DNA of 64,000 nucleotides. It comes from Mustelus asterias (taxonomy: Eukaryota). The DNA is taken from the NCBI RefSeq assembly GCF_964213995.1, contig NW_027590452.1, forward strand, positions 62,001 to 126,000, written 5' to 3'. Positions 13,173-38,625 of the stretch are shown piece by piece (position 1 is the first letter of the stretch; the number at the start of each line of letters is the position of its first letter). The position numbers were made by a program, and so were the translations under genes. The notes below the pieces were generated by a model, which saw nothing but the letters and a program-made list of their open reading frames with translations, was not told the DNA's origin and ran no database searches.

Positions 13173-13242
13173 TATATGAATAAAATAAACACGCATTATG
13201 ACACTGAATACCAGCAACCTGAAACCATTAATCGCAGACGTT

Positions 13243-15977: not shown

Positions 15978-16269
15978 AGAATCAAGAGTCTGTTGTCAGG
16001 AAAACACATGACGTTGAATTACAGAGAAACTGTTCATAGAATGAATCCGTCAGTGCAGCTTCATCTGAGTGGCTTTCCGTCCCTGAGGTCAATGATTTCC
16101 ACTTGGTAAGTGTAATATTTGTCGCTCAGATTACTCCCAGATCAAATCCAATCATTTCCCATCCCAATCACACAAACCCGCAGAGCGCCCGGGCGAATAA
16201 CTCCACCAATCTCTACTTTTAATCTTTCTGTATCAGATGCCTATCTGTCAGTGGAAATCTGTTTAATAA

Positions 16270-16730
16270 GAACATAACATAGGAACATAAGAACTAGGAG
16301 CAGGAGTCGGCCATCTGGCCCCTCGAGTCTGCTCCACCATTCAATAAGATCATGGCTGATCTTTTCGTGGACTCAGCTCCACTTAGCCGCCCGCTCACCA
16401 TAACCCTTAATTCCTTTACTGTTCAAAAATGTCTATTCTTGTCTTTAAAAATAATCAACGAGGTAGCCTCAACTGCTTCACTGGGCAGGAAATTCCACAG
16501 ATTCAAAACCTTTGGGTGAAGAATTTTCTCCTCAACTCAGTCCTAAATCCCCCTCATTTTGAGGCCATGACAGTCAGCGCTGTTCTTGTTTCACCTGACA
16601 ATGGAAATAACTTCCCTGCTTCCCTCTTATCTATTCCCTTCATAATCTTTATGTTTCTATAAGATCTCCACTCATTCTTCTGAATTCCAATGAGTATAGA
16701 CCCAATCTACTCAGTCACTCCTCATAAGCC
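16270..16730 (-). mobile_element. CR1-type LINE 3' fragment
   Basis: (aacataag)n tail and decayed RT C-terminal sequence. Absent from the paralogous inverted arm near 28.7 kb. Confidence 0.7.
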
Positions 16731-17421
16731 AAATGTGGTTTAGCATCAAAGGCACACCCAGAGTTGTCACATTTTGAAGTTTCTGGATTGAAATAATGAC
16801 TGATTGAAATCATTGCTTTCCCGGGAAACAAATAACCCCGGTGGAACCGCATCTCAATGTGGAACAAAGAAATTTACACCACAGAAATAGGCCCTTCGCC
16901 CCTTCAAGCCTGCACCGACAAACTGGAGTTGGCTGACTACATATCCCCGGTACACTTAAAACAGCAACTACTATTTATGTTCATGCCGTGGATGCACTTA
17001 TTTATACCCGCGGAATAAATGAATGTAACTTATTCATTACACTTTTAAATTCAGATACAGAGAAAGTGCTATGCAAAAAACAGGGACAATGAGTTCGAAA
17101 GGAAGAGAGTTAAACCGACAAAGAGCCAGTATAACTGATAATGTTATAAAACTTCCATGGAGAGAGAAAGAGGGTGAGAAAGATGCACACAGCCGGGGGT
17201 GGAAAGTGATTGAAGCTGAGTTTACTCCTCTACGAACAGTGATTGGTCCACAGCTGACGTCATCTCAGGAAGACTGCCAATCGCAGCAGTGAAAAATGAC
17301 CCCATCCCCGCAGTTTCCCAATAATTGCAGTTGCCTCTGATCTGAGTTGACTCTGTGATATAAGACGAGAAACAGCAACGTATTTTAAACAGTGTGGCTG
17401 TTTACTGTCCTATCAGGAACC

Positions 17422-17859
17422 ATGTGTTCCCTGTGTGCTTTACTGATAATAATGGTCATGCTGCCCGGTGAGTCTGAGCTCAAATCCTCAGTGTGTGTTT
17501 CATGGGTTATATTCGTTCACAGATTTCTCACACATTCTATATGTTGTTACAGGAACCAGTGACCAAACTTCAGTTTCCCAGGAGCCGCCCGAATTAACGG
17601 TTCAGGAAGGACAGACAGTAATTTTGAACTGCAGTTACAAAGCAAAATACGCTGACCAAACTCTCTTCTGGTACATCCTGTATCCCGGAGAAGCTCCGAG
17701 ATATTTATTGAAAAGTTACGGCAACGGGAAGGGGGATAAATCTCCTGATTTTTCGGATCGATTTTCTGCTAATTTGGACAAAGACAAGAAATCAGCTCCA
17801 TTAAATATCACCGGTGTCCATGTCTCTGACTCTGCCGTGTATCACTGTGCGCTGAGCCC
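17422..17859 (+). CDS. TCR alpha/delta-type V segment (V2), potentially functional
   Basis: Leader 17422-17467 (MCSLCALLIIMVMLP) and V exon 17553-17859 (TSVSQEPP...LNCSY...LFWYILYPG...DSAVYHCALSP). CRE TGACGTCA at 17255. Intact RSS. Confidence 0.92.
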
Positions 17860-17898
17860 CACACTGCTACAGAGGCACAGTCAGCCCGTACAAAAACC
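17860..17898 (+). other. 23-RSS of V2
   Basis: CACACTG, 23 nt, ACAAAAACC. Confidence 0.93.
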
Positions 17899-18319
17899 AG
17901 CAAAGGCACTCTCACCTCCTCTCACTCAATCAGGTCTGTGAGCTGGGTTGTGAACTGCTAATATAAATGAAATCATATTATACAGATCAGTGAGTTCGAA
18001 AGATCACATTTTGGTGCGGAATGTCTGTCAGTTTATGTAAAATCTCGCTTTATAGTAGTTTCCGTGGTTTACGAGCAACTCTGAATCGGAGACCCTGGTG
18101 CTGTTATTGCAACATTAAATAAAACCCATCAGCATCATATCTCAAAGGTCATCTCGGTGAAAATGCACCGATTGTGCAGCAGATGGAGCAACAATCCCAG
18201 TTTCAATAGGGGGACAGAAGCTGCAATGCTGCCCCCTGGTGGTCACTTCTCCCAGTCTCAGCATTGCAGAGTGTTTAAACAAGAGTGCATTGTCACAGCA
18301 GCACCTTGACCTTCAGTTT

Positions 18320-18525
18320 CAGTTTATTTATTAGTGTCAGAAGTAGGCTTACATTAACACTACAATGAAGTTACTGTGAGAATCCCCTAGTCGCCCACAC
18401 TCCGGCGCCTGTTCGGGTTACACTGAGGGAGAATTTAGCACGGCCAATGCACCCTAACCAGCACATCTTTCAGACCGTGGGAGGAAACCGGAGCACCCGG
18501 AGGAAACCCACGCAGACACGGGGAG
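18320..18525 (-). mobile_element. SINE (3' portion)
   Basis: Same family as 14665-14960 and 58768-59060. Confidence 0.75.
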
Positions 18526-19674
18526 GGGACAGCCCGGGGGAAAGCTCCATTCCAACTGTCCCTGGAGTGTCAGATTAACCTGGGTCACTCACGCACCCCC
18601 GGCTAAGACTCACCTCCCTCAGACAGTGAGACCCTCCTGTATCACTCACCTTACTGTAGTCAGATACCCTCAGACTCAGCACTGGGCCCTGGGCGTGTTC
18701 TTTAAATGCTGCGACCTATCGTGGAGGAAAGAATTGGGAGGATTTTGATTTGATTTGATTTAATTTATTATTGTCGCATGTATTGGGATACAGTGAAAAG
18801 TATTGTTTCTTGTATGCTGTACAGACAAAACATACCGTTCATAGAGTACATCGGGGAGAAGTAAAAGAGAGGGTGCAGAATGTAGTGTTGCAGTCATAGG
18901 TAGGGTGTAGAGAAAGATAAATCTAATATGTAGCAGGTCCATTCAAAAGTCTGAGGGCAGCAGGGAAGTTCTTGAGTCGGTTGGTACGTGATCTCAGACT
19001 TTGTATCTTTTTCCTGACGGAAGAAGGTGGAAGAGAGAATGTGTGCATGAGGTCCTTAATTATGAGTTTTTGGTCCTGTCGCTGTCAATGGGATTTCCCA
19101 TTGAAGTCACCTCACGCTAGCAGGAAACCAGAGGCAGGGGAACGAGAGCAGAGAATTCCCCACGAGTGAACAGCCGGAGAATCCCGGACAGTCGCTCCTT
19201 TCCCAGTTATCACTGCACTCAACCCAGTCGCTGTTTATACGCTCAGTTGTCTCAGTGAATACTACATTACACCATGCTGCTGTGGACACTACAATCAACC
19301 CTTTTTGAGTTCTCACTGTATTAATACCATGTATGGATTGATATTTCATTGGACAATGTGCTGGGTTAGATGAATATTTATTGATTCTTGTGATGTGGGT
19401 GTCACTGGCTAGGTCAGCATTTATTGCCCATTCCTAGTTGCCCTGGAGAAGGTGGTGATGAGCTGCCGTCTTGAACCCGCTGCTGTCTATGTGGTGTAGG
19501 TACACCCACAGTGCTGTTAGGGAGGGGACCTGCTTAAATTATCACTGCATTTAACGATGTCACTCTTTATAAAAAATAAACTAGACCATGTCTGGGTAAT
19601 GAATGTGGAGCATGTCTCCATTTCTCTTTACCTCAGCACTGTATCTGTGTATATAACACTTTATACAGTTTCAA

Positions 19675-19960
19675 TGTTATTTATTAGTGTCACAAGTAGG
19701 CTAACATTAACACTGCAATGAAGTTGCTGTGAAAATCCCCTAGTTGCCACACTCCGGCGCCGTTCGGCTTCACTGAGGGAGAATTTAGCACGGCCAATCC
19801 ACCGAACAGCATGTCTTTCAGACTGTGGGAGGAAACCGGAGCATTCGGAGGAAACCCAGACACGGGGAGAACATGCAGACTCCACACAGACAGTGACGCA
19901 AGTCGGGAATCGAACCCGGGTCCCTGGCGCTGAGAGGCTGCAGTGCTAACCACTGCGCCA
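19675..19960 (-). mobile_element. tRNA-derived SINE
   Basis: Box A/B-like head (gtgctaaccactg, tcgaacccggg) and the family body. Confidence 0.8.
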
Positions 19961-20326
19961 CCCCTATAAACTAGATACAGTTTCTCTTCTTAATGCATGG
20001 GGCCATCCCTCTGTATATACTACAATTGGTCTTTACTTAGTTATTGCTTCACTCAACTATGTCACTGTTTCCAATGCACTCAGTGAAGTCACAGTTATTG
20101 ACGCACGCAGCCATGCCTCTATCTACACCACACCCGACAATTTCTAAGCTGTTGCTGCAATTGCCTCTCTGAAATTCCCCCTCCCCACCCCCAGAACACC
20201 CATCTGCTGCCTTCCCACATTGTCACTGTTCTCGCTGTAAAAGGGAAGTTGAAGCAAGTAAAACCTCGTTCCAATCCGCACTCTTATTAACCTGCTATAG
20301 TGTCACTGGATCCTCTCAGCTTACGT

Positions 20327-20937
20327 ACATGTGTCGCAGTGGTGTTTTTAGTCCTGTTGAAGGAGACCTGGATTTCAGTGAGCAGAAATATCCCAAGCTG
20401 AGATATAATCAGTGTGCTTGTGAGGAAAATCGCTATATTGTTAGGGCCAGGGGTGGGAATGAAGTCGCTGGTCTGATTATTGTAACAGAGAAACACTGGG
20501 TTGCGAATTGTGTCAGAAAACATTTGACAGACATTCAAAATGAGAATGAACATTGATGGCAACTTGTTCTCAGGGATTGTTTTGAATAGCACAATGATAA
20601 CCTTGCGAAATGTATATGCCAATATAAGCTGTCCCTTAGGCAGCAAAATACTCTGATCAAATAGACCCTTTGATCAAAGAGATCTTGAAAAGGAGAGTGA
20701 AGATGGGGAAAGTGCTGCACAATAATTCACACAGGCAAGAAAATGTCATCAAAGGTTGAAGCGTGAGTTAAGGAACTGTAAATGTATTTTTAGTATAGTT
20801 GCAAGTTAAAAATTCAACTGTGGCTCAGCCGTTCGTGTTGAGTGTTGTGTTTTGTTTTGATATTTTGTTTATGACCCTGTGACTATCACTGTCGAGACAA
20901 AATAATTACTTCTGTTTATCAGTGTGGGAGCGCCCTC
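20327..20937 (+). repeat. ~610-bp near-identical direct duplicate of 37402-38013 (3' flank of V9)
   Basis: Read-across identity from acatgtgtcgcagtggtg to agtgtgggagcgccctc. Confidence 0.92.
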
Positions 20938-21100
20938 GAGCGAGTGTTGCAGACTGGCACATTCCAGGGCGCAGGACTACCTGCTGATGGACGCACTAAA
21001 CCTTGGGGCAGTTGCTGCAAAGGCGCAATGGGGGAAACCCCGCTGACTGAGACCATTCGGCCCTTGTGAACTGAGGGGAGCAGAACTCATTCTGAGCCCC
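20938..21100 (+). mobile_element. L1/Tx1-like LINE ORF2 C-terminal fragment
   Basis: Translates to CCRLAHSRAQDYLLMDALNLGAVAAKAQWGK, resembling the end of Tx1-clade ORF2. Confidence 0.55.
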
Positions 21101-21674
21101 TCTTGCTGTAGGACTCACATTGAAGGAATGCAGTGAATATTACACGTCTCGCAATTCTAGTGAAGCACCTCAGAGTGCACATTGTTCAACGTAGACAACC
21201 TAAATGACAACGTCCTTCCTGTATTGACGATCTTAAAATATGTATTATGTTCCATTGATTGTACTGAACATCTTCAATGCGCAACAATACCTTTGCAGAA
21301 ATCTTCAGTATCACTGCACTTTCTGAAATAACCATTTTGCAAAGTTTTGTAATGTTTCATTGAATGTGTTGAAGCACGTCAGCGTGCAAAATTATCTGTG
21401 TACGAAACCTAAACGTCAATGCACTTTCTGTAAAGACTATTCTGAAACGTTCTGTAATGTTCCTTTAATTGTACACAGAGTGCAACAGCTTCATTGTCGA
21501 AAACTTGAATGTTATTGCACTTGGTGTTATGGCCATTTTGAAATATTGTGTAATGTACTTTCAGATATTTTATGAATAAGTTTTTTTTTGCAAAAAACAC
21601 AGCGTCCCAGTCATTGAGAGTACAGAATTCTCACAGCTGCCGCTGCTCCCTTCAATAAGTTGTGAACTACTGGT

Positions 21675-23510
21675 GAATACAAAGAGCTTCTACAAATACA
21701 TAAAGAGCAAAAGAGTGACAAGGGAGAAAGTAGGGCCAGTTAAGGATCAACAAGGTCATCGATGTGCGGATCCACAAGATATGGGTGAGATCCTAAATGA
21801 ATATTTCTCGTCAGTATTTATTGTTGAGGAAAGCATGGATGTTAGGGAACTTGGGGAAATAAATAGTGCTGTCTTGAGGAGTGTACATATTACAGAGGAG
21901 GAGGTGTTGGAAGCCTTACAGCGCATCAAGGTAGATAAATCCCCGGGACGTGATGAAGTGTATCCCAGGACATTGTGGAAGGCTCGGGAGGAAATTGTGT
22001 GTCCCCTAGCAGAGATATTTCAATCATCGATAGTCACAGGTGAGGTGCCTGAAGATTTGAGAGTGGCAAATGTTATGCCTTTGTTTAAAAAAGGCTGAAG
22101 GGAAAAGCCTGGGGACTACAGGCCACTGAGCCTCACACCTGTGTTGAGTAAGTTGTTAGAAGTATTTTGAGAGTCAGGATCTACAGGCATTTAGAGATGC
22201 AAGGACTGATTAGGGACAGTCAGCATGGCTTTGTGAGTGGAAAATCACGTCTCACAAGTCTGATTGAGTTTTTTGAAGGGGTAACCAAGAAGGTAGATGA
22301 GGTCAGTGCAGCTAGTGTTGTCTACATGGCCTTTAGCAAGGCCTTTAACAAGGTACCGCATTGTAGGTTGTTGGATGAGGTTAAATCTCATGGAATCCAG
22401 GGTGGGTAGCTTAATGGATACAAAATTGGCTTGATGACAGGAGCCAGAGGGTGGTTGTAGAGAGTTGTTTTTTAAACTGGAGGCCTGTGACCAGCGGTGT
22501 GCCTCAGGGATCAGTGCTAGGTCCACTGTTATTTGTCATTTATATTAATGATTTGGATGAGAATATAGGAGGCATGGTTCGTAAGTTTGCAGATGACACC
22601 AAGATTGGTGGCATAGTGGACAGTGAAGAACGTTATCTCGGATTGCAATGGGATCTTGATCAATTGGGCCAGTGGGCTGACGAATGGCAGATGGAGTTTA
22701 ATTTAGATAAATGTGAGGTGATGCATTTTGTTAGGTTGAACCAGGGTAGGACTTACTCAGTTAATAGTAGGGCGTTGGGGAGAGTTATAAAACAAAGAGA
22801 TCCTGGGGTACATGTTCATAGCTCCTTGAAAGTGGAGTCACAGGTGGACAGATTGGTGAAAAAGGCATTCAGCATGTTTGGTTTCATTGGTCAGAACATT
22901 GAATACAGGAGTTGGGACGTCTTCTTAAAGTTGTACAAGACATTGGTAAGGCCACACTTGGAATACTGTGTACAGTTCTGGTCACCCAATTATAGAAAGG
23001 ATATTATTAAGCTACAAAGAGTGCAGACAATATTTACTAGGATGCTACCAGGGCTTGATGGTTTGAGTTATAAGGAGAGGTTGGATAGGCTGGGACTTTT
23101 TTCTCTCGAACGTTGAAGGCTTAGGGGTGATCTTATAGAGGTCTATAAAGTAATGAGGGGCACAGATCAGCTATGTGGTCAATATCGTTCTCCAAAGTTA
23201 GGGAAGTCTAAAACTAGAGGGCATAGGTTTAAGGTGAGAGGAGAGAGATACAAAAGTGTCCAGAGGGGCAATTTCTTTCACACAACGGTTGGTGAGTGTC
23301 TGGAACAAGCTGCCAGAGGTAGTAGTAGAGGCAGGTACAATATTGTCTTTTAAAAAGCATTTAGCCTGTTGCTTGAGTAAGATGGGTACAGAGGAATATG
23401 GGCCAAATGCGGGCAACTGGGACTAGCTTCCGGGTTTAAAAAAAAGGGCGGTAAGGACAAGTTGAACCGAAGGGCCTGTTTCCATGTTGTAAACCTCTAT
23501 GACTCTATGG
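21675..23510 (+). mobile_element. Degenerate CR1-type LINE ORF2 (~1.8 kb)
   Basis: Successive ORFs with KSPGxDxxYPR, QHGF, SGVPQGSVLGP, KFADDTK and LVRPHLEYC, interrupted by frameshifts and stops. ctctatgactctatg tail. Confidence 0.93.
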
Positions 23511-24800
23511 TGCTAGCCATTCCTCAGGAAAATTGTTACTCGGGCCGTTTGAAACCTGTCAGTATTTTACATCTCTTGATTTCGATGCATTTTGTTAACC
23601 TTTAGCTCTTGACTCTTGTGCGGGAAAGGTTAATCCAAATTAATATCAACACCGCGATATTGAGCCAGGTCTGCACCAACAGCAGTTATTAGTTCAGTCA
23701 CTTCAGTTGCAGACGGAGATCTGTGCACCGTACAGACAAGGAGGAGTCTGTTGGCCCATTGTGCTTGTGCCATTACTTCGCATGAGCTGTACAAATAATT
23801 CCACATCTCTGCTCTTTGCAAAGAGTTCTGAAGAAACCCAGTCCATCACGCAAACCAGCCGCCCATCCGCTGACTATGTCTACACTTCCCGCTGCCTCGG
23901 AAAAGCGCCCGGCATAATCAAGGACCTCACGCACAACGGACATACGCTCTTCCACCTTCTTCCGTTGGGAAAAAGAAACAGGTGTCTGAGATCACATACC
24001 AACCGATTCAAGAACAGCTTCTTCGCTGCTGCCATCGGACTTCTAAATGGGTCTAACATACATTAAGCTTTTCTTTCTCTCCACCCTGGCTATACTTGTA
24101 ACACAGCATCTTGCACCCTCTCCTGTTCTTCTCCACTATTTTCTCGGTGTATAGCATTTGTCTGTATAGCATGCAAGAAACAACACTTTCCACTGTATAC
24201 CAGTGTATGTGAAAATGATAAATCAAATCAAATCAAATTTACCCAAACCCAAGACAATTCCTCCTTCACATCTCTTGAAACAATATTCAGTTATTTAATT
24301 CAGAAAAACAATGAGAGAAATAAAACCTGAAATAGAGGCATTCATTCTAATGAGCATTTTCTTAAATTTTAAACTATGATGACGGATTGCGATATTAAGA
24401 ATGCTGAAAATATATTGTACTGAGCTGGTGCTCACAGTTTGTCTGATTCCTTAGGAGCAGCGGTCCGAAAGCTTGTGCTACCAAATAAACCTGTTTGACT
24501 TTAACCTGGTGTTGTGAGGCTTCTTATTGTCATGAATTAGAGCAGACAGGAGCTCTCGGCTGGTTGGATGAATCCAGAGTAAAGACCCCAGGAGCTTATT
24601 GGATTATCACCTGATGACGCTGTCAGGAATAAATCAACTTGTGGATTGTGATATCCAATCAGCTCTTTATTCTCTATTCAGTGATCTCCACTCTTCCGAC
24701 CATAGGGTCTGCAGGGTGTGACGTCAGACCAGCCAATGCTCTCTGCTTTATCTTGTTCGATCTTCTACAGCTTTCGGAGCCGAATCCAGGAGCAGCAGCA

Positions 24801-26199
24801 ATGCGGCTCCCCGTTTTCTCTCTGATCTGGGTGACATTCATTGTTGGTGAGTTTAACACTTTAAAAATGAGTTATTTTCTGGAGAGATAAAGTTGAAAAG
24901 CAGGACATTCGTGTTACACAGGTATTGGACCTGCCGTAGAACAGAAATGAATCCTTGCGAGTGGTTTTAGTCTTTTGAAAATAGTTTCGAAAAGCACACT
25001 GCAGAGGCGATTCGAGAGATGGTACCCGGATTGGGAGATGAGAGCTATCAGAATGCAAGGTTATGATTACTTTCTCGACTGACCAAGGAAACTAACGCAA
25101 ATCTGACTGATCTATTTATAATGATATCGAGGATTGGTGTGGTGGACGGGGAGAGGATGATTCCACTTGTGGAAGGATTCCAAATATCTGTCCCATGAAT
25201 CTAATGAAACAAATAGATCAACTGGGAATCGGAGAGAAACATCTTTAGAAAGAGTTGGGTAGAATGTGACTCATATTAACACAATGAACACTTGAGGAGA
25301 GGAGCAAAGACTAATTTAAAGGTGAACTAAACTGGGCGGCATGGTAGCACAGTGGTTAGCACTGCTGCTTCACAGTTCCAGTGGACCTGGGTTCGATTCC
25401 CGGCTTGGGTCACTGTCTGCGTGGAGTTTGCACATTCTCCTCGTGTCTGCGTGGGTTTACTCCGGGTGCTCCGGTTTCCTCCCACAGTCCAAAGATGTGC
25501 GGGTTAGGTTGATTGGCCATGCTAAAATTGCCCCTTAGTGTCCTGAGATGCGTAGGTTAGGGGGATTAGCGGGTAAATATGTAGGGATATGGGGGTAGGG
25601 CCTGGGTGGGATTGTGGTCGGTGCAGACTCGATGGGCCGAATGGCCTGTTTCTGCACTGTAGGGTTTCTATGATTTCTATGATGAGAAACTAAACAGCTG
25701 AGGAAGAAACGGACAGATGCATTGAGAAGAGGCGAGAGGGAGGAATCTCCTGGGGATTGTAAACGGGAACGTAGATCAGTTGGAGAGAATGTGGTATGAT
25801 TCAATACATATTTTTATGTTACACTGTCAGTGAATTTTCTCTCTGAGTTCAATTGAACTTTGAAACAATGTTTTTTCTTTAACCGTGTGTTCCAGATCTG
25901 AGCGATGGAGATTCTGTTACTCGGCGGGAATCCTCACTCACACGGACAGAGGGAGAAGATGTCACTTTAAACTGCACCTTTACCGACGATGCCTATTATT
26001 TATTCTGGTACCGTCAATATCCAGGCAGACAGCCCGAGTTTGCAGTCCGGAGAGACAAGAACGGCGGTTTTGAATTAAAGGCGGATTTCGCTCGGACCCG
26101 GTTTTCTGATTCAGTCCAGCAGTTAGACAAGTTGTACCGATTGACCATCTCGGAGTTGCTGCTGTCTGACACTGCGGTCTATTACTGTGCACAGAGTCT
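24801..26199 (+). CDS. TCR alpha/delta-type V segment (V3), potentially functional
   Basis: Leader 24801-24846 (MRLPVFSLIWVTFIV). V exon 25896-26199, translated manually: DLSDGDSVTRRESSLTRTEGEDVTLNCTFTDDAYYLFWYRQYPGRQPEFAVRRDKNGGFELKADFARTRFSDSVQQLDKLYRLTISELLLSDTAVYYCAQS. CRE at 24719. Confidence 0.92.
25334..25680 (+). mobile_element. tRNA-derived SINE in the V3 leader intron
   Basis: GGGCGGCATGGTAGCACAGTGGTTAGC...GGTTCGATTCCC head (box A/B) and tttctatga tail. Confidence 0.85.
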
Positions 26200-26238
26200 C
26201 ACAGTGATGAAAATGAGTGAAATCCTCGTACAAAAACT
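26200..26238 (+). other. 23-RSS of V3
   Basis: CACAGTG, 23 nt, ACAAAAACT. Confidence 0.95.
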
Positions 26239-27626
26239 GCCGCAGGTTTCTGAGTCACAGCTGCTGTCTGTCGAGAGCTGTTTCTAACAGCGGGTCATAC
26301 ACTGACACGTCAATACATTCCTGTGAACGCAAACCCGACCACAATTCACACAAACACCATCTAAAATCGTTCACAGATTCCGTCTGATTGTTACATTCAC
26401 CGTGCGAGGGAAGAATTAGCTGTTGTTTATTTGGAATCACCGGGAAATCGGCACTAATGTTGAGAATTCAAAATGCTGCAGGTAGCCTTGAACTAGTTGT
26501 ACCCTTGTTCTGATGTTTCAAAAAACACTCGGGCCAAAGAAACCAATGCTGTTTGGTTTGATATGTCAGTCAATAGTGTAAACTGATGCCCGCCTGCTGA
26601 GGCAAAGCCTCATAATCACATCAGCCTGATTAAACATCTCTCAATGTTACAGTAATGAAATAAAAATATCAACTGGGAATCGAAGAGAAACTTCATTGGA
26701 AAGAGTTCGGAAAAATGTGACTCATATTAACACAATGAACACTTGACACATATTAAAACTAAGAATTCTTAACAGTAAAGGTACAGAAGTTTATTTCAAT
26801 GCATGCTTAGAATCCAATGAACAATGATTAATAAGTAAATTATCTCTAAGAACAGGTTTGGTGTACTCTAGACACTGGAACATTTGATAAGAAAATCGAC
26901 TGAATGCAGAACCCTAATTGAAAAGAGCGTCAGAAAGTTCCTGAAGGACAACTAGGGATGGGCAATAAATAGCGGCCGAGCCAGCAACACCCACATACCC
27001 GGAAGTCTTTCTTTAAAAGTCTGCTGTAATCACCAGAAGTACTTTGGGAAATCGAAACCGCGGGATAAGTCTTTCTGCTCAGACAAATATTTTGTTGGGA
27101 TATGGACCAATCGCGGGCAATTGGAACTAGCATAGTGGTTAAAAAAAGGATGGCATAGACAAGTTGGGCCGAAGGGTCTGTTTCCATGCTGTAAACCTCT
27201 ATGACTACCTCGATATCCGTTATTTCCCTGAATATCCACAAATCCATCAACTGTCTTCAAGAAATCAAACGACTGTATAATCATCGCTCTCTTTGACACA
27301 TAGAGCGCATTAAAGCGAATGTAGGGGTTTGACTGAGATGATTTTTGAGATATGACTCTGATGAGTTTTATTTCATGTTGTAATAACAGCACCAGCGTCT
27401 CCTATTCAGAGTTGCTCGTAAACCACAGAAACTACTATAAAGAGGGATTTTACATACACTGACAGACATTCAGCACAAAGAACGTGATCATTCGGTTTAA
27501 CTGGTTTTAATGATATGATTTTGTTTATATTAACAGTTCACAATCCAGCTCAGAGATCGCATTCAGTGAGAGGAGGTGAGAATGCCTTTGCTGGTTTTTG
27601 TACGGACTAACTGCGTCTCTGTAACT

Positions 27627-28071
27627 GCGGTTCAGCGCACACTGTTACAGATACACGGCAGAGTCAGAGACATGGACCCCGGTCATATTTAATGAAGCTG
27701 TTATCTTGTCTCTGTCCAAATTAGCAGAAAACTGGTCCGAAAAATCGGGAGACTTAGCCCCCTTCCCCTTGCCGTAACTTTTCAATAAATATCTCGGAGC
27801 TTCTCCGGGGTACAGGATGTACCAGAATAGAGTTTGGTCAACGTATTTTGCTTTATAACTGCAGTTCAAAATTACCGTCTGTCCTTCCTGAACCGTTAAT
27901 TCAGGCGGCTCCTTGGAAACTGAACTTTGGCCACTGGTTCCTGTAACAACATATAGACTGTGTGAGAAATTTGTGAGTGAATATAACCCATTGAACACAC
28001 ACTGAGGATTTGAGCTCAGACTCACCGGGCAGCATGACCATTATTATCAGTAGAACACGCAGGGAACATGT
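27627..28071 (-). pseudogene. TCR V pseudogene (V4), inverted paralog of V2
   Basis: Leader ATG changed to ACA (28069-28071). In-frame TAA just before the second Cys (TAT CTG TAA CAG TGT). Heptamer destroyed; nonamer kept at 27593-27601. Confidence 0.9.
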
Positions 28072-29000
28072 GGTTCCTGACTGGAGAGGAACAGCGACAC
28101 TGTTTAAAATATGTTGTTGCTTCTAGTCTTATATCACGGAGTAAACTCAGATCAGAGGCAGCTTCAACAATAGGCAAATTGGGGGCTTTTCTCAGTGTTG
28201 CAATTGGCTGGTCCCCTTGAGATGACGTCAGCTGTGGACCAAACCCTGTTGATGGAGGACTAAACACAGCTGGCTCCCTCCAAACACATTCCATCCCGGG
28301 CTGTGTGTGTTTTTCTCACTCTCTTTCTCTCTCCATGAAAGGTGAATAACATTATCAGTTACACTGTCGCTTTCTCGGTTAACCCTCTTTCGTTCGAACT
28401 CAATGTCCCCCTTTTTATAGATAGATCTTACTTTCTAAATAAAGTTAAAAGTGAAATAAATAATTTACACTCATTTACTCTGCGGGTATTAATGAGTGCA
28501 TCCACTGCATGAACATAATAGTAGTTACTGCTTTATTTATACCGGGGATAAGTCATCACCCAAGTCCACATTGACTTGCGTTTCCACTGGGATTACTCTT
28601 ATACTGGGAAAGTACTGATTTCAATCAGTCATTATTTCTGTCCAGAAACTTCAAAATGTGACAACTCTCAGTGTGCCTTTGATATTAGGTCACATTTAAC
28701 AGGTGTCCCCTGACAGATAGGCATCTGATACAGAAAGATTGGAAGTACTGATTTATTAAGTTATTCACCCGGGACATCTGTGGGTTTTGTGTGATTGGGA
28801 TCAGGAAATGATTGGATTTATCTAGGAATAAACTGAGCACCAAATGTCACATTTCCCCAACAGTGACAATCACTGACGTTAGGGACTGAAAGCCACTCAG
28901 CTGGGGCTGCATTGTCAGGGTCATGATCTGCGCATTTTCTCTGAAATTCAACGCAATGTGTTTTGCGGACAAGGAACCCCATTGATTGTGGACCTGAGCC

Positions 29001-29039
29001 AGTTTTTGTACGAGGCCCGCGGGATCCTCATTCACTGTG
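29001..29039 (-). other. 23-RSS of V5
   Basis: CACAGTG, 23 nt, ACAAAAACT on the minus strand. Confidence 0.93.
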
Positions 29040-29513
29040 GGTCTCAGTGCACAGTAATACACGGCGTTGTCTGTCATCTTGGAATCTTTCATGGACAAGT
29101 GAAAAGAGCTTTGTGTCTGGCTGAGATTCCCGCTGAAGTGTCCAAAGCCGGGAGCCGTATCGGTAAACCCATAACTATCGGGTCTGAGCAGATACTGAGG
29201 AGCTCGGTGTGGATACTGGCGATACCAGAACAGGACATAGACTGTAGCTGAACTCGATACAGAGTAACTGCAGGGTATTGCTGAATCTTCGCCCTCTGCT
29301 GCGTCAACTCCTGGGAAACTGAGTCTCCGTTACTCATCTCTGAAAATAGACAACAGACACGCAGCGGGTTAGAAGGAGTAACAACAACGGAATAATCGCC
29401 TAGAAATGGAAATGGGCAATGAATATGGTGATTGGCGGATTTCAGTCAAAGGTTCAAAATGACCAACCTGTGATCAGGGCAATAGCCAGAGACAGACAGA
29501 CTTTCACCCCCAT
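29040..29513 (-). pseudogene. TCR V pseudogene (V5), inverted paralog of V1, frameshifted in FR1
   Basis: Leader 29468-29513 (MGVKVCLSLAIALIT), V exon from 29339. A deletion after DSVSQ shifts the frame. The 3' part DNAVYYCALRP and the RSS are intact. Confidence 0.9.
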
Positions 29514-30553
29514 AGTTCCAGTCTGAACACCAGAAACAGAGGCAGTGATCACTGTCTGCATAAGACCTGGAAATGGAGAAGTTGAAACAGTCAGGGGGAT
29601 GTTATGAGGTCGAAAGTGACTCCGTCTCTCCGCCCATTTTTACATCTTCAATCATAGAAAAGAAACCCTACAGGACAGAAAGAGGCCATTCGGCCCATCG
29701 AGTCTGCACCGACCACAATCCCACCCAGGCCCTACCCCCATATCCCTACATATTTTACCCACTAATCCCTCTAACCTACACATCTCAGGACACTAAGGGC
29801 AATTTTAGCATGGCCAATCAACCTAATCAAAAAGTCGCTCCCTCTGAAGGGAATCGTGATTTTTCATAAGTGATCAGAGAGCGCCCTCCCGTGGACAGCA
29901 CTGCCGCATATTGGAAACAGGTTCACGCACGGTCACCTGTAAAGACTGGCACATATCCACATAATAGAATCATAGATCATAGAATTTGTACAGTACAGAA
30001 AAATGCCATTCGGCCCACCGAGTCTGTACCTATCGCAAGTCTACCCAGGCCCTAGTCCCGTAGCCTCATACATTTGCCCCGCTAATCCCCCTGACACTAG
30101 GGTCAATTTATCATGGCCAATCAAACTAACCTGCACATCTTTGGACTGTTGAAGGAAACTGGAGCACCCGGAGGAGACCCACGCAGACACGGGACTTTGT
30201 CAGCTCATCCAGAGCTACCGGTCTGTCAGGCTCTCCCGCTCGCCGTCGTCCAAGACTTGCGTGATAGACGACAGGAAAGACTGGGAGGCCGTGCTGTCTG
30301 TTGGCTTCAGGTCATACAGTCCGGCTCTTTACGTATTCTTACTGCACTTTTTCGCTTTGTCTTTCTTTCATTCTGATTTGCATGTAACCTCTTCCATTTT
30401 CTTTGAATACATTCCCAACTCTCTTCATTTTAAGCTTTTTAAAATTTTCTGATTCAAGAAATGTTTCGCTCTCATTCCCCTTACCATTGGAATTTAATAC
30501 CGCGCTTGTTGAAACACTGATATTTCTGCGGAGCGGTTTTTGAAAACGGTGCA

Positions 30554-30592
30554 GGTTTTGGCACGGGACCTGCCTGTGTTTTTTACACTGTG
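30554..30592 (-). other. 23-RSS of V6
   Basis: CACAGTG, 23 nt, GCCAAAACC. Confidence 0.88.
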
Positions 30593-30925
30593 CCTCACGG
30601 CGCAGAGATAGGTGGCAGTGTCTGAAACCTGTACGTCCCTCACAGTCAGGATGCTGAGTTTGTTGCTTTCAACGATCGAAGCAGTGATCCTCCCATGTTG
30701 ATCGGTTCCTCTTGTGGCCATCACCAGATGCTGGGGTGACTGATTCGGGAGCTGTTTATACCAACGCACGATGTCAAACGTAATGGAAATAGTGCAGTTC
30801 ATGGATATATTTCTCGCTTCACTGATAACCATCCGTGGAGGGAGCTGCAGCAACTCAGCTTCTCCGGTCATCCCCGTGCAGATCAGAGTGATAAACAACA
30901 AAACGTCGATGCCAATCCTGACCAT
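30593..30925 (-). CDS. TCR alpha-type V segment (V6) with intronless, fused leader
   Basis: Single ORF MVRIGIDVLLFITLICTG-MTGEAELLQ...MNCTIS...VRWYKQ...VSDTATYLCAVR followed directly by the RSS. No AG acceptor at the usual leader/V boundary. Confidence 0.85.
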
Positions 30926-31561
30926 TCTCAGTTCACACACAACACCGAGATCAGCTTTGAACCAGGAGATGGAAATTAACCCGGAACCAAGTATTTTCTT
31001 CGGGTTCAGTTCAGTGCCGTGTTTATGTTGAACTGACAACATTAGGCGGGTTCTACTTTAGCCACCCATACTGAGCGTTTCACACTGACACAGGCCCACA
31101 CAACCTCTGAGGACACACCTGACACGCCCAGATTAAATATTTCTCACGCGACACACTGCTCTCTACTGGTGAATACTGGTAATTCCAGGGTGCAATTCTT
31201 CACTTGGATCTTCGACAAGTTGCAGTTCACGAGATAGTTATAAATGAGAAGAGCTGTTTCCTCCTTCTTGTTATAGCTCTTTCATTGCGGGAGAGCTTAC
31301 AACGTTCCTTCATCGATCCAACGATTGCAGTGCATTTTGCTCTCTCGTTCTTTCTGAAGTTTCATTCCACACTGTGACCAGTCCCGGTCTGACAAGAAGA
31401 AGGTCCTGATGTTAGTCCTAAAATATCGTTCGATAATTTGGGAACTTGTGCAATGGGAACTGGTCTATCCATCGAATGTATGTTACATAACTACAGGAGT
31501 GGCAACATTGACAATTCATAAGAATATTTCAAAAAATAATAAGTTTGTTATCAGTGTTAAC

Positions 31562-32163
31562 ACTATGTTTCTGCATTTGTTCCTTCAATCAAATTTTCTT
31601 CAATAAAGACACGCGCTCCGATAATGAACTTAATGCAATGTCCTTCTGCCCTCTCCTGGTGGAAAAAAAGCACTACAATATACAGCTTTAAAACAACCTG
31701 TTTCATTTTTGGAATCAAGATTGATTCCAACAACTGCTGATCATTCTCCTCAGTATGAAGTATATTTTTACTTTCTTTTCTTTTTGATTGCGCCTGGAGG
31801 TATTAAATCTGATTTTCATTGTTGGAACTCATTGATCATCCGATGTTCCAACAATCTTTTTAGAGCGGATCATGGATATTGTGTCACTCCACCTCTATCT
31901 TCAGGAGTTCAGGTAGAAGTAGAATGGATGACATAAAATCTATTTCTAATACAAGATGCGGGTTGGGGGGAATAGTGGAAACTGGATCTAACATCATGAA
32001 ACACAGCCAGTGTTAATTCTGACAAAATACCGATTAAAGCTGTATATTGTAGTGCTTTTTTTCCACCAGGAGAGGGCAGAAGGACATTGTATTAAGTTCA
32101 TTATCGGAGTGCGTGTCTTGATTGAAGAAAATTTGATTGAAGGAACAAATGCAGAAACATAGT
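31562..32163. repeat. ~130-bp inverted repeat pair (31562-31691 / 32034-32163) with ~340-bp spacer
   Basis: actatgtttctgcatttg...tacagctttaa against its reverse complement ttaaagctgta...caaatgcagaaacatagt, with few mismatches. Confidence 0.9.
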
Positions 32164-33274
32164 TTGGACGAACCACCCCTTTACCGTGAACACGATTTTT
32201 TGTGTAACAATGCTGCGAATATTGCAAGTGATCGAGATCCTAAGGTCAGGTCTACATGGAATGTCCATCCACTCTCATTCTGCGTAAATCTATTAAATAG
32301 CTAATTCTAGCCCTCCATTCATCCCATTTAAAAGATGGTGTTTGGCTATTTACCACATTGTTGTATTCAATTCTCTCAGGACTCAGTGGCCTCCTGCATC
32401 AGCTACGGGGAGTTTTCACAGTTCCAGATCAGCTCTTTTAATTTGGGCTCCGGCTATGATTCAGGAACACCATTAACTAATTTAAAATAAAAGCAAATTA
32501 CTGCTGATGCTGGAATCTGAAACCAAAAGAAAAATGCTGGAATATCTCTGCTGCTTTGGCAGCACCTATAAGGAGAGAAAAGAGCTGACGTTTCGAGTCC
32601 GGATGACCCTTTGTCAAAGCTAAAAGGCATGAGAAGTGGGAGATGTTTATACCTTTTGGTGAGGGAATGAAATATGAGTCATAGCCACAAAAACAAAGGG
32701 AAAAGCTGCTAATGGCAGTCCAAAGAGAGAATAGTAGGTGTGAATGGCCAAACGACAGAGAACCTGAAATCAGAGGGTAAGCTGTGACAGATGAAGATAA
32801 GGAGGGAGGGGGGAGATGGGTGGAAAAGAGGTAAAATTGAGAAAACGGGGGGAAAGGGAAGCAAAGGAGGAGAAAAGATAAGGAAAGGGGAAAGCGTAGG
32901 AGGCGGATAAGAAAGACAATAAAGGAATAAAAGGAAGAGAACAGTTAAAAATTAACCGATTTCCTGTTCTCACTCCGCCTTACAGGTTGAAGCGATTAAA
33001 TGGACAAGTTTGGGTCGCATCCCTGTCCAGGTCCCCGGGAGGTGAACAAACTCCTTAGTTTATTTCTCCCGACGCTGAGAGCCAAGGGAGCCGAGCGCTG
33101 ATTGGGTCATTTGAAGACAATGGAATTCTACGGTTGGCTGTCAATGAATGACGTTGTCAGGAATGAACCAATCAACAGCGGCCCGGATGTAACTCAACTT
33201 CTCACCAGCTCTTGACAATTAAAATGTTAACTTCAACCCTCTCTGCTCACATCCCCCTCGACCTCTCTGCAAAC

Positions 33275-34165
33275 ATGTCTCCTGTGACTCTGTGCTTATT
33301 CCTCACAGCTGCAGCTCTACTAACCGGTAGGTTCACAAGTTACAAACTCTGCGTTTCACATATTTACCATTCACTGCATTCAATTGAGCAGTTCGATTAA
33401 CACACTGGTAAAATATATATTGATTCTAATATCAATTAGAATCATCTTTGTTTCTGCAAGGGAGGAGGCAAAATACCTCAGCTGAATGAGAGTGAAGAGT
33501 TAAGGTGGGATTGCAGGCCCCACCGGAGCCGCTGAGGGACTTTGACAAACTTGATAAAATCTGGATGAAAGCTTTGACAAACCCGAGATCTAAAACCCAC
33601 GGACAGTTTAGTTTCCCCAACAAATAACGTGAAACGAAGGCGAGGATCTGATCTCCTTAGAAGGTGTTCATTAAACGGAGTGTCGTTTAACCGCGACAAA
33701 CACGTTCCCGTTACAACCTGCGTGTTGCGGGATTTATATTCCTGTTTAGATGCTGTGGTTCGTTTTTCAGATTATTGGCCAGGGTGACGGGCCGAATCCG
33801 GCCATTAAACAAAGTGAACTGACATCGTTTAATTTCGCATTACTCTTGGCTCTTACAGGACAATGTGGAGGAGATCCAGTTTCACAGATCCCGGCTGCAG
33901 TCACAGTGAGTGAAGGAGATGATGTTCAGTTATTCTGTAATTATACAACTGCAAGCACTGACAATTATTACCTATTCTGGTACCGTCAGTATCCCAGCGG
34001 ATCCATGGAGTATCTACTGATGAGAAGCAAATATACCGGGAACAAAGAGAGATTCCCAGGAGACCGTTTATCAGCGGAGCTCAATGATACAACCCGCACG
34101 GTCCCGCTGAAAATGTCTAAAACAGAGCTGGCAGACTCCGGGGTGTATTACTGCGCACTGAGACC
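33275..34165 (+). CDS. TCR alpha/delta-type V segment (V7), potentially functional
   Basis: Leader 33275-33326 (MSPVTLCLFLTAAALLT) and V exon 33859-34165 (DPVSQ...LFCNY...YLFWYRQYP...ADSGVYYCALRP). Confidence 0.93.
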
Positions 34166-34204
34166 CACAGAGACACAGAGCTGGGCTGAACCTGTACAAA
34201 AACC
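34166..34204 (+). other. 23-RSS of V7
   Basis: CACAGAG, 23 nt, ACAAAAACC. Confidence 0.92.
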
Positions 34205-34278
34205 CTCAAAACCTCACTCAACATGAACAGGGTAAACAGGAGTCCCAAGATAAACAGGAGTTGGGACGATGAGAATCG

Positions 34279-34350
34279 TGGTTCCACCGAGACTCGGACT
34301 CAGACTGCTGGATTGAAAGTCCAACGTGCTCACCGTGACATCATGAAACC
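34279..34350 (-). pseudogene. Degenerate tRNA-Gln-like sequence
   Basis: The reverse complement aligns end to end with vertebrate tRNA-Gln (GGTT.CATG.TGT...AGCAC.TGGACTTT.AATCCAGC...CTCGGTGGAACC). T-loop and anticodon (TTC) are altered. Confidence 0.65.
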
Positions 34351-34653
34351 AACAGGCGCCAGTATAAGGCAGGAGGTCTTTCACTCAGATCTCACACATA
34401 CACATTCTTGGTCAATAAGGGTTGTTGCTGTTTGACACCAACTGCTCCTTTCTATCGACAGAGCGTTAAAGAGGAGTGAAAATGAGAAAGAGAAACACTG
34501 ATGTTGCGGGCATCTGTCGACAGAGGCCCAGCAATGTGCTTTGTAATAGCAGTGGAATAGGCTGGCAAATTGTCCTCTCGATTCGCACTTGGTGAAAACT
34601 TTAAGCGGAATGTCCTTCAGCAAAGCAATCATCGGCATTGACAAAGAAAAGCA

Positions 34654-34725
34654 AGGTCCTGCGGAGATTTGAACTCAGATCGCTGGATTCAAAGTCAAGA
34701 GTAATACCCATTACACCACAGAACC
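34654..34725 (-). tRNA. tRNA-Gln(TTG)-like gene, probably a pseudogene
   Basis: GGTTCTGTGGTGTAATGGGTATTACTCTTGACTTTGAATCCAGCGATCTGAGTTCAAATCTCCGCAGGACCT. Acceptor stem fully paired, TTG anticodon, GTTCAAATC box B. One mismatch each in the anticodon and T stems. T-tract downstream. Confidence 0.65.
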
Positions 34726-34927
34726 CAGAAAATCGCAAACAGATGCAAATGACTTATGAAACACGACTACTTCTGCTGATATCTCCCGATACGGCTTGCG
34801 AAGGAAATGATTTGCTATAGATTTGGAGGGCTGTGTTGTTTCAGTGGATTTACTACAATAAAGTTTATAAAATGTCTATCTCTTTGATGAAGCACAGGCG
34901 GCAAACTGTCAGGACTGCTCCTCTATC

Positions 34928-34966
34928 GGTTTTTGTACGACTCGTATTGATCTTTACAACACTGTG
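34928..34966 (-). other. 23-RSS of V8
   Basis: CACAGTG, 23 nt, ACAAAAACC (perfect consensus). Confidence 0.95.
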
Positions 34967-35485
34967 CGCCCACCGCACAGAAATAGGTAGCAGTGTCTGT
35001 CACCCGAGTGTCGCCGACACTCAGAACGCTGCGTTTCTCTGCAACAATGTTCCGAGCCCTGATCCTGCCCTGATCGCTGGTACCGCTCACCAGGTGCTGC
35101 ACGGTTCGGTCCGGGTATTGTCTGTACCATTGTAGGACCAGTCCAGCTGCTGTAGTGGAACAGTTCAACGATGCTAGGTCTCCCTCGGTAACCACCACAG
35201 ACTCTGGAGACTGTGATACCTCTTCACTACCAGCGGCATCTGGGAAGGATATGTAGATATGCAACAACATCATAAAATTAAAATCTCATACTGCAATACA
35301 ATGTTGCACAATGAAGTACAATTGAACGCATAATACAAGATAACACAACAAAACAGAATACTATTTAACAGAACATAGCATCGCTAATGTGTGAAATATC
35401 GCTGTCAGAAATAGCGACCACACTTACACTGAGGGAAGAGTAAGAAATCCAGGGAGATGATCACTGAAGCGAAGCTGAGCTTCAT
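34967..35485 (-). CDS. TCR alpha-type V segment (V8), potentially functional
   Basis: Leader 35428-35485 (MKLSFASVIISLDFLLFPQ) and V exon 34967-35239 (EEVSQSPESVVVTEGDLASLNCST...LQWYRQYP...VTDTATYFCAVG). Confidence 0.9.
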
Positions 35486-35715
35486 GTCGGATCCTATCGA
35501 CACTTGTAAAACAGTTGTAGGAAGATCTCAGGACAGGAAAAGCTCCTGGGAAAGCAAAGCTATTGGACATGAATCTGAGCCCAACACCAGTTATACTCTC
35601 GCGACCAGGGCTGGATCTCTGGGACTTTTGATCAGGGAGTGAAATAGTGAGGGAGCTCCAGCATCGATAGGGTGTGGGGGAGGAGCGTGCGCAAGAGTCA
35701 GAGCGTCCCGCATTG

Positions 35716-35813
35716 TGACGTCAGAGCAACAGACATTGTGACATCAGAGTATCCGGCACTGTGACGTCAGAATGCAGCCATGTGCGGCGTCACCATGCAG
35801 CCCTTTGACGTCA
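35716..35813. promoter_or_regulatory. Periodic CRE (TGACGTCA) array upstream of V8
   Basis: TGACGTCA 35716, TGACATCA 35739, TGACGTCA 35762, CGGCGTCA 35785, TGACGTCA 35806. Confidence 0.65.
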
Positions 35814-38044
35814 GTGGGTCTGGTCTGAGGGACAGAAACATCTCTCCCGGAGCTGATCTGAATCTCCAGCCCTGAGTTTGTGGGAATTTACAACTGATCA
35901 GAAACTGGTTTAACCTGTAAACTGATTTGATGGCGGATCTGCCGGTCTGATCGGATTCTGCAGTTAATTTTCTCAGTCATGGCTGGAAAATAAATGGGTG
36001 AATGTTGAGTCCGAGGTTAATGTGGTTCCCGCTGGGTGTGTGTTTTATGCGGCTGAGAACAGCACTGCTCACAGTGGCTGTATCTATCCAGATTCTAGCC
36101 TTTGTCTAACATCAAGTGTAATTTGCTAATCCTGCACTTGATAGAAATCAATAAGGTTACATCGAGGTTTCTTTTGAATCAATTTTTAAAAAAACGCCAT
36201 CTGGGCCTTTTTCTAAGATGAAGCTCAGGTCAAGCACTGGAAGGAATATAATACCTGCTCCAATCAGCTAGGATGTTGTTAATCAAGCCCAAGGCTGGAA
36301 GAATGGGCCCTGTGTTGTCAGCTTCGATCTGCAATGTCTCTCTTGCAGCGACCTTTGAGTGGACCAATTCGGTTTTTGATTGGATATAACTAAAACAGAA
36401 AGCAGGCATCTCGGTCTTTGGGCTCGAATCAAGCATCAAATCGAGTCCAAGATCAGGTGCGATGCTCTTTCATGTCAGCTTGGATTTTTTGCGAGGACCA
36501 TGAATTAGATTCAATTTGAATTGGTTTTGGGGGCAATTAGGAGATGGATTCTGGCTTGGCCAGTCCGCTCTCTGCATTGGCTTTGCAACGTTAAGCAATT
36601 ACTATTTTACAATCCGACAGACAGGAGCTCCCGAACACAATGCAAAGTGCGGGGTTGGATTGGTTTCCATCATAAATTCCGTAAGTGAGTCCTTATTCTG
36701 ATCAACTCTTCAGAGTCCAATTTCTCCAGCTGGAGATGGAGAGAGGTTTGGCTGCCTGACCGGTGCTGTTGCTGTTGTTTGTTTCACGATTGTCTGCAAA
36801 CATGAGTAAGACTCCCTGCGAGCGCAGTTCAATATCATAAAGCTGATATTGATCAGTGAGTTCCAGAATAAAACAAAGACAATCCTTGCAATGTCATAGT
36901 TGAAACTTGTAAAAAAAACTACTTCTGTTTCTGTCTCATCATTTGAGGACAATCAGTAAGTGACATAATTTCCATGACTCAGATCTGAAATACATGTTCA
37001 AACCCGAACAATCATATCGGAGTGTGTTTAAACTTTAGGTTGAAATCACGATTGGGAAATTACTTTAAATGTGTTTATTCCACAATTGCCTATCTGAAGT
37101 TCCCCCTCCCCACCCCGTCTCAACCGAGGCAGACCGAGGGCCGGGTAACTGCAGAATACCCTCGGCCTGAGTAACTGTGTGCCAACCTGAAAAATAACGG
37201 CACACAGTAAACTCTGACACATGTATATAGTTTTAAGAAATGAAATGTAACAAAATGTAATGTTTTTGTAAATGAGCACGGTATTGTACTGTAAAAATGA
37301 TTCTTTTTTGCACTGTTTATGACCTTTGGATCTGTCATTTTGCAATGTTTTATTGGAGAGTTTATTTTTTGTGAATAAAGTATATTTTTGAAATAAAAAA
37401 AACATGTGTCGCAGTGGTGTTTTTAGCCCTGAAGCTGGAGACCTGGCTTTCAGTGAGCAGAAATATCCCAAGCTGAGATATAATCAGTGTGCTTGTGAGG
37501 AAAATCGCTACATTGTTGGGGGCCAGGGGTGGGAATGAAGTCGCTGGTCTGATTATTGTAACAGAGAAACACTGGGTTGTGAATTGTGTCAGAAAACATT
37601 TGACAGACATTCAAAATGAGAATGAACATTGATGGCAACCTGTTCTCAGTGATTGTTTTAAATAGCACAATGACAACCTTGCGAAATGTATATGCCAATA
37701 TAAGCTGTCCCTTAGGCAGCAAAATACTCTGATCAGATAGACCCTTTGATCAAAGAGACCTTGAAAAGGAGAGTGAAGATGGGGAAAGTGCTGCACAATA
37801 ATTCACACAGGCAAGAAAATGTCATCAAAGGTTGAAGCGTGAGTTAAGGAACTGTAAATGTATTTTTAGTATAGTAGCAAGTTAAAAACTCAACTGTGGC
37901 TCAGCTGTTCGTGTTGAGTGTTGTGTTTTGTTTTGATATTTTGTTTATGACCCTGTGACTATCACTGTCGAGACAAAGTAATTATTTCTGTTTATCAGTG
38001 TGGGAGCGCCCTCTGCTGATCACTAACCGGAACTCCCAGTCTGG

Positions 38045-38082
38045 GGTTTTTGTGCGGGGTTCGCTCCATCTGTACCAGTGTG
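38045..38082 (-). other. RSS of V9 (22-nt spacer)
   Basis: CACACTG, 22 nt, ACAAAAACC. Confidence 0.88.
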
Positions 38083-38625
38083 GGCTCCATGGCACAGAAA
38101 TACACGGCGCTGTCGGACAGAACAGCTCTGGCGATATTTAAAGGAACAGTATTGTTTCCTTTGTGTAAAGCAGCCGAGAATCTATCTGAGAAATCCGGAG
38201 ACTGATCGGTATTGCCCGAGCGATATATCTTCATCAAATATCTCAGAGATTGCCCGGGATACTGGATGCACCAGAACACAGCTTGAAAAGCAGCTGTCGA
38301 GTATTTACAGTCCAGTGTTATGTTCTGTCCTTCCAGAACCGATAATTCAGATCGATCTTGAAACACTGAATCTTCAGCATTTGCCCCTGTAACAAAACAC
38401 AGAAGGTAATCAATATCTGGGAGGGAAGAGAGCCCATGGGACAGACACTGATCATTTAAACACTGGCTCAAAAAAGAAAATGCTCGAAATTTTCAGTAGA
38501 TCTGACAACATCTGTGAGAGGAAGAACAAAGATAAAGTTTCACGTCAGGATGACACTTTGTCAGAGTTTATTGACTCACCGGGCAGCAAGACCATTATTA
38601 TCAGCAAACAAAATAAGGAGCACAT
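38083..38625 (-). CDS. TCR alpha/delta-type V segment (V9), V2-related family, potentially functional
   Basis: Leader 38580-38625 (MCSLFCLLIIMVLLP) and V exon 38083-38386 (DSVFQD...LDCKYS...VFWCIQYPG...SPDFSDRFSA...SDSAVYFCAMEP). Confidence 0.9.

Follow-up and report, generated by a model that had tools for sequence, protein, structure and literature searches.

The question raised by this locus is whether T cell receptor (TCR) V genes lying in inverted orientation 3' of an IgM constant region can be joined to IgM D and J segments. The stretch of DNA analyzed, referred to as the window, consists of 64,000 nucleotides (positions 62001-126000) of contig NW_027590452.1 in the Mustelus asterias assembly GCF_964213995.1. 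The contig, here called C420, is 328 kb long and unplaced. A first-pass annotation of the window had proposed that three inverted V genes could reach the IgM D and J segments by inversion and form a TCR-V-D-JH-C-mu chain. The IgM cluster of C420 is probably a young duplicate with a headless VH gene, situated in a duplicated field of TCR V genes which themselves likely serve TCR loci. The locus most likely adds another piece to the duplicated antigen-receptor complex of sharks. The segments in question were as follows (RSS, recombination signal sequence; FR, framework region; TM, transmembrane; positions are those of the window unless a contig is given):

C420:51479-52890 (L006:1479-2890), 9-10.5 kb 5' of the window: VH stub, D1, D2 and JH of the IgM cluster
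1715..2008, plus strand: C-mu CH1 exon, part of the IgM cluster with the VH stub, D1, D2 and JH upstream
2951..3271, plus strand: C-mu CH2 exon, open
4186..4494, plus strand: C-mu CH3 exon, open
5731..6122, plus strand: C-mu CH4 exon with secretory tail and stop
9323..9599, plus strand: C-mu TM1 (9323-9450) and TM2 (9591-9599), open
13078..37116: TCR V array block, identity to contig C1151 of 99.1% (13078-29478) and 98.4% (29772-37116)
15678..15977, plus strand: V1, TCR V pseudogene with a degenerate YxC motif and no RSS
17570..17898, plus strand: V2, TCR V exon, 23-RSS at 17860
24801..26238, plus strand: V3, leader and V exon, 23-RSS at 26200
27627..27923, minus strand: V4, pseudogene with a stop in FR3
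29001..29349, minus strand: V5, frameshift in FR1, intact 23-RSS at 29039
30554..30925, minus strand: V6, open leader and V in a single exon (30593-30925), 23-RSS
33275..34204, plus strand: V7, open, 23-RSS with heptamer CACAGAG
34928..35485, minus strand: V8 (34967-35485), open, TCR-alpha-like, perfect 23-RSS
38045..38625, minus strand: V9 (38083-38625), open, 22-RSS

The IgM cluster and its inverted V neighbors

The VH gene of the cluster was found to be headless, with the part from complementarity-determining region (CDR) 2 to FR3 and the RSS remaining and the promoter, leader and FR1-2 lost. Similarity to the VH genes of the clusters on C166, C132 and C110 began abruptly in CDR2 (L006:1479-1485), and 349 bp counted from the ATG were missing compared to C166. 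The 5' half of VH was sought in the 60 kb upstream (C420:1-60000) and was not found there. A whole VH was present in all seven other IgM clusters examined. Loss of its own VH removes the normal heavy-chain product of the cluster. A functional shark IgM minilocus has a whole VH with promoter and split leader, which C420 lacks; its other features, namely unjoined D1, D2 and JH with RSS spacers of 12/22, 12/12 and 23 and open C-mu exons, were all observed. CH1-CH4, the secretory tail, TM1 and TM2 had open reading frames and canonical splice sites, and the VH stub retained an intact 23-RSS, 437 bp from D1, with heptamer and nonamer identical to those of intact paralogs. The first-pass annotation depended on free 12-RSS at the upstream D segments, and the 5' 12-RSS were indeed free. 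Germline joining of the cluster, which the same annotation had named as an observation that would speak against its idea, was rejected on the same grounds.

The IgM-like block extended from C420:51479 to about 73050 (about 21.6 kb, from mid-VH to the 3' flank), and similarity to other IgM clusters stopped past TM2, at about 10900-11050 of the window. At the left junction (C420:51479, L006:1479) spacer DNA meets mid-VH with one shared base. The spacer 5' of the break was present at 39 further places among the 40 scored, 37 of them matching on the spacer part at 96-99%; the full spacer/VH junction had a single occurrence in the assembly. On C232, C1151, C436 and at a second array of C420, the same spacer was followed about 2 kb on by a TCR V array. 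To the right of the IgM block, DNA resembling long interspersed nuclear elements (LINEs) was followed by a V array 98-99% identical to the copy on C1151, and on C1151 further TCR V genes occupy the place of the IgM block. The left end of the block would stem from a non-homologous duplication, and the right end possibly from a repeat-mediated join.

Some further features of the contig were observed. A CpG-rich multi-copy element with YY1-like and CTCF-like motifs lies 200-800 bp 5' of the left junction. The second TCR V array of C420 (C420:246969-295811, L020-L024) contains a 98% copy of the V3-V6 block, with the same V4 stop. Positions 40000-64000 of the window are rich in simple repeats and contain no Ig-type exons, and copies of this part with 96-99% identity are located at C420:308-326 kb and on C436.

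Nine TCR-type V exons were located at 15.7-38.6 kb of the window, and the orientation series reported by the first-pass annotation (+,+,+,-,-,-,+,-,-) was reproduced for all nine. Its description of V6, V8 and V9 as intact genes, inverted 3' of C-mu and carrying RSS with 23- or 22-base spacers, agreed with the translations and RSS. Each of the three has an open, stop-free leader and V exon with a Cys-Trp-Cys core; GT/AG splice sites were found in V8 and V9, and in V9 a Cys replaces the usual Tyr after the conserved Trp. The RSS of V6 is CACAGTG-23-GCCAAAACC, with two nonamer mismatches, and the RSS of V9 is CACACTG-22-ACAAAAACC. A strict RSS filter, which excludes the V6 nonamer, detected six sites at 15-39 kb of the window; in 100 base shuffles the average was 0.02 sites and no shuffle had more than 1. 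The solved structures matching V8 best (best 60 matches) were mostly TCR alpha chains. V6, V8 and V9 appeared closer to TCR alpha/delta V genes than to VH, an assignment made by structure comparison for V8, and by likeness to V8/V2 and absence of VH likeness for V6 and V9. The single-exon leader and V of V6 may be a family trait, since a database relative (P0146) has the same layout.

Relatives of the V array and the C-delta units

Across 14 contigs, 20 sites matched a pattern for J segments with 12-RSS. On C106 and C90 they formed part of units that begin with an Ig-like V and a 12-D-23 segment and continue with four or five J, a single C exon and then a TCR V array. This C exon (e.g. L070:8171-8473) had at least 19 open matches at 83-100% identity, which occupied both orientations and were spread over 17 contigs:

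C71 (three sites), C90, C96, C106, C110, C111, C115, C119, C123
C138, C154, C173, C181, C401, C436, C850, C3311

The repeated exon was designated a putative C-delta from the D-bearing anatomy and from the TM segment of named gene models, with its delta-type TM motif. On C106, C115 and C90, Ig-like V genes stand immediately 5' of D-delta. The general make-up of the units was NARTCR V, Ig-like V, D, two to five J, C-delta and a mixed TCR V array, with IgM clusters interleaved. At C436:213429-213728 (L129), a NARTCR supporting V-delta is followed 18 bases on by a D-delta-type 23-RSS and looks like a germline-joined V-D. The copies may represent a cluster-like, amplified organization of TCR-delta, which may be more surprising than the hybrid question itself. 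Their number could be inflated by uncollapsed haplotypes, as 10 kb of C106 and C115 match at 99.6%; three copies on one 20-Mb contig and the existence of several sequence classes speak against haplotype inflation alone.

On C106 and C90, C-delta is followed by relatives of V3-V4psi-V5 and V6-V7-V8, whose order and relative orientation agree with those in the window. V8 relatives in inverted orientation were found on C106, C90 and C119, at a distance of 73-80 kb 3' of C-delta (73 kb on C119). C436 has a 7.7-kb block containing V3 and V4psi at 27 kb 3' of its C-delta, and the V3 protein of the window is identical to that of the V located there. No TCR D, J or C was found on C420 (326 of 328 kb read), whereas close relatives of its V genes are linked to them on C106, C90, C119 and C436. 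No C-alpha was detected in a search with Pfam PF09291, and the J pattern identified J-delta-type segments only. The claim in the first-pass annotation that some of the V genes must use inversion to reach TCR D/J segments was weakened by the occurrence of C-delta in both orientations, and the position of C420 relative to the C-delta contigs is not fixed in the assembly. V6, V8 and V9 are likely passengers of a segmental duplication, which would normally serve D and J segments of TCR-delta/alpha.

Across seven regions, 46 V genes were in plus and 47 in minus orientation, and on C143, a contig selected for its V8 match, V8-V7-V6 lie 3' of C-mu in the orientation opposite to that of the window. 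Selection of V orientation was rejected on these two observations. TCR V genes were absent from the 30-33 kb past TM in five of the six IgM clusters closest by CH1. Nothing in the genomic distribution of the V relatives points specifically to C-mu as their target.

Possible hybrid use and its alternatives

The 5' 12-RSS of D1 is 40.5 kb from V6, 44.9 kb from V8 and 48.0 kb from V9. As read from the sequence, it faces the same direction as the RSS of these minus-strand V genes, so that joining would occur by inversion and would yield V-D-JH-C-mu on one strand. Inversion onto D1 over 40-48 kb is legal under the 12/23 rule. The minus-strand V genes also face the 3' 12-RSS of D2, where joining would delete JH and C-mu, and the legal joins would thus include destructive ones. 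Inverted V genes 3' of C at the TCR delta and beta loci are known as TRDV3 and TRBV30. As in a TRDV3-like arrangement, V6, V8 and V9 are opposite to C-mu in orientation and have a free, 12/23-compatible partner RSS; their position and orientation relative to C-mu were not conserved across the clusters compared. The TCR-V-D-JH-C-mu product suggested by the first-pass annotation is sound in its 12/23 logic and inversion geometry, but nothing found shows use or selection. In lymphocytes, RAG would mostly join the VH stub, D1, D2 and JH locally, in steps of about 400 bp. Such joins would give a product with neither promoter nor leader and would make the cluster a young pseudogene. Inversion of V6, V8 or V9 to a free D 12-RSS would be legal and could take place in thymocytes as a rare by-product, but a working hybrid antibody would further need opening of the TCR V genes in B cells and pairing with a light chain.

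In sharks, some joins made by RAG have become part of the germline. With exact patterns of limited sensitivity, no germline TCR-V/JH joins were found in the assembly, compared to five VH/JH joins. A likewise insensitive pattern for germline signal joints gave none that matched the spacers of IgH D or of the window V genes; its single site, on another contig (C8:50402752-50402815, L139), is a perfect head-to-head 12/23 signal joint with spacers of neither kind. Segments fused in the germline were V-D1-D2 at two sites (C1007:3295-3321 and C1179:56309-56335), V-D-JH at five sites, and D2-JH in the IgM cluster at C143:782262-782279 (L105). Four public DNA-like, contig-only runs from one study, with 0.46-0.51 of the words present, were compared over the VH-D-JH region. 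They contained two V-D1-D2 joints, of which the one checked was present at two places in the assembly and is hence germline, and the four runs gave no view of somatic joints. At all 16 positions compared they had another letter than the C420 copy (at least one paralog's letter at 14 of the 16), and the spacer continued in the ordinary way at the left junction. The headless copy may be private, polymorphic or below detection in those samples. No public RNA runs were listed for positions 33700-38600 of the window, which is uninformative on expression. A search for longer proteins bearing the V8 domain found none, which is weak evidence. A search with V2 gave five gene models, and the two shark ones inspected were multi-V without C-mu. 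A search of representative sequences with V8 gave V-type matches, and no V8-type domain on a C region was seen among the 13 inspected of the 150 listed.

Several observations weigh against the reading of the cluster as a headless duplicate whose V neighbors serve TCR loci. In the closest paralog with a whole VH, on C166, TCR V genes begin 11 kb past TM, so IgM and TCR V genes are also neighbors at an unbroken copy; the V set of C166 differs from that of the window. The C-mu exons, D1, D2, JH and every RSS of these segments are intact. Private C-mu changes gave a ratio of non-synonymous to synonymous substitution rates (dN/dS) of 0.33 (11 non-synonymous and 10 synonymous; p=0.015 against neutrality), similar to those of the intact clusters on C143 (0.30) and C166 (0.17). 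This value fits with continued use, and also with a truncation younger than most of the changes. At 10/325 sites, the private synonymous divergence of C-mu is higher than the 1-2% seen in the V block next to it; most changes may thus predate the break, and dN/dS would count only weakly for a hybrid. The germline-join patterns were exact with a gap of 6-36 bases, and diverged or longer joins escape them. Finally, according to PMC2435157, every thymocyte of the nurse shark has most of its IgH loci in a partly rearranged, untranscribed state, with V-DD-J and V-D-DJ forms among them in which a 5' 12-RSS stays free. IgH D RSS and TCR V RSS can thus be open together in one cell.

It is plausible, though less likely than not, that V6, V8, V9 or the broken V5 is now and then inverted onto D1 or D2 in thymocytes. 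The resulting TCR-V-D-JH-C-mu DNA, perhaps transcribed from a TCR V promoter, would be a rare by-product with no receptor function. Such by-products would be compatible with a headless duplicate. The joins are 12/23-legal between partners 39-48 kb apart, IgH is partly rearranged in nearly all thymocytes, the forms with a free 5' 12-RSS described above included, and inversional V-gamma/J-beta hybrids were found at 8 per 100,000 normal human blood lymphocytes (PMC2188320). Against this, the 23-RSS of the VH stub is about 100 times closer to D1 than V6, V8 and V9 are, and the exact patterns revealed no germline trace. T cells are without light chains, which would make a hybrid protein unlikely. 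A functional hybrid, the reciprocal of the IgHV-TCR-delta chimeras, is very improbable. Here an IgM cluster captured by the TCR alpha/delta V field would have been kept and would borrow inverted TCR V genes to make a TCR-V/IgM heavy chain in B cells. In its favor, the cluster's own VH is destroyed next to intact D, J, C-mu and RSS with the dN/dS given above, three of the inverted V genes are open and have RSS that could be used, and Ig V to TCR-delta trans-rearrangement is stated to be common in sharks (PMC12227049). The single-copy junction, the reversed V orientation beside the C-mu of C143, the near-identity of the V genes to copies in other contexts and the lack of a germline hybrid join all argue against it, and the letters at the 16 positions in the four public runs hint at a copy not shared by those samples. 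PMC2435157 and PMC5192425 also indicate that nurse shark IgH rearranges only within the minilocus, long-distance joining being 'rare, if it exists' (PMC2435157). This intra-minilocus rule argues against routine use of an outside V, and the partial rearrangement in thymocytes leaves a window for rare hybrid joints.

Misassembly is quite improbable; it would mean that contigs were falsely joined in this strongly duplicated part of C420, either at the headless cluster or between it and the V array. The region is a mosaic of 96-99% duplicates, the junction occurs once and is bridged by none of the 32 listed of 527 contig pieces, the four runs continue the spacer normally, and the right join, within LINE-like DNA, is less secure than the left. 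The left junction, however, shares one base and no long repeat, and the cluster diverges by 2-7% from every paralog examined. The reading as a headless duplicate makes the cluster a natural test case, as no normal heavy chain is possible and it has private C-mu and intron variants; a full-length transcript with these variants would have to contain a V from outside the cluster or stem from a switch-type event. It thereby becomes testable why Ig-to-TCR trans-rearrangement is seen and the reverse is not. A functional hybrid, if true, would break the intra-minilocus rule for shark IgH and would be a snapshot of a minicluster starting to draw on an outside V pool.

Comparison with known systems

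IgM clusters interleaved with TCR V genes are already published. The text and Table S1 of PMC12227049 (Flajnik et al. 2025) place TCR alpha/delta V exons between IgH clusters and list IgM entries without V. The elasmobranch antigen-receptor complex (AgRC) described there resembles C420 in its IgM miniclusters among TCR alpha/delta V exons of mixed orientation, in the great white shark entries 'IgM (missing V)' and 'IgM pseudo?', and in the nearby NARTCR and Ig-like V genes. The parts of that source consulted contain no discussion of TCR V genes joining IgH D/J and no VH truncation at base level, and they give about one C-delta model per species, compared to the at least 19 matches in the present assembly. 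No paper on TCR-V-to-C-mu products or on amplified shark C-delta was found in the literature compared, to which Criscitiello 2010, Deiss 2019, Ott 2021 and Matz 2021 did not belong; this is not proof of absence.

In IgHV-TCR-delta trans-rearrangement and TAILV (as cited in PMC12227049, PMC5931798 and PMC6795676), 12/23-compatible V and D segments of different receptors are likewise located in one complex. In C420 the direction would be reversed, from TCR V onto C-mu, with a so far hypothetical product. The inverted V genes 3' of C at the TCR beta and delta loci, as mentioned in PMC12227049, are similar to V6, V8 and V9 in being downstream 23-RSS V genes reachable only by inversion. Each of these loci has one conserved V for its own use, whereas the array of C420 is mixed and shows no conserved orientation next to C-mu, and the V block of C420 is also inverted 3' of C-delta on three contigs. 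The shark IgM minilocus VH-D1-D2-JH-C-mu, as given in PMC2435157, matches C420 in order, in spacing of about 400 bp and in its RSS (23, 12-22, 12-12 and 23), and differs in that the VH of C420 has no promoter, leader or FR1-2. The human interlocus hybrid TCR genes described in PMC2188320 are also products of RAG joining legal RSS across loci, rare and sometimes in-frame and transcribed. They join TCR to TCR over a whole chromosome, whereas the candidate joins of C420 would link TCR to Ig over 40-48 kb.

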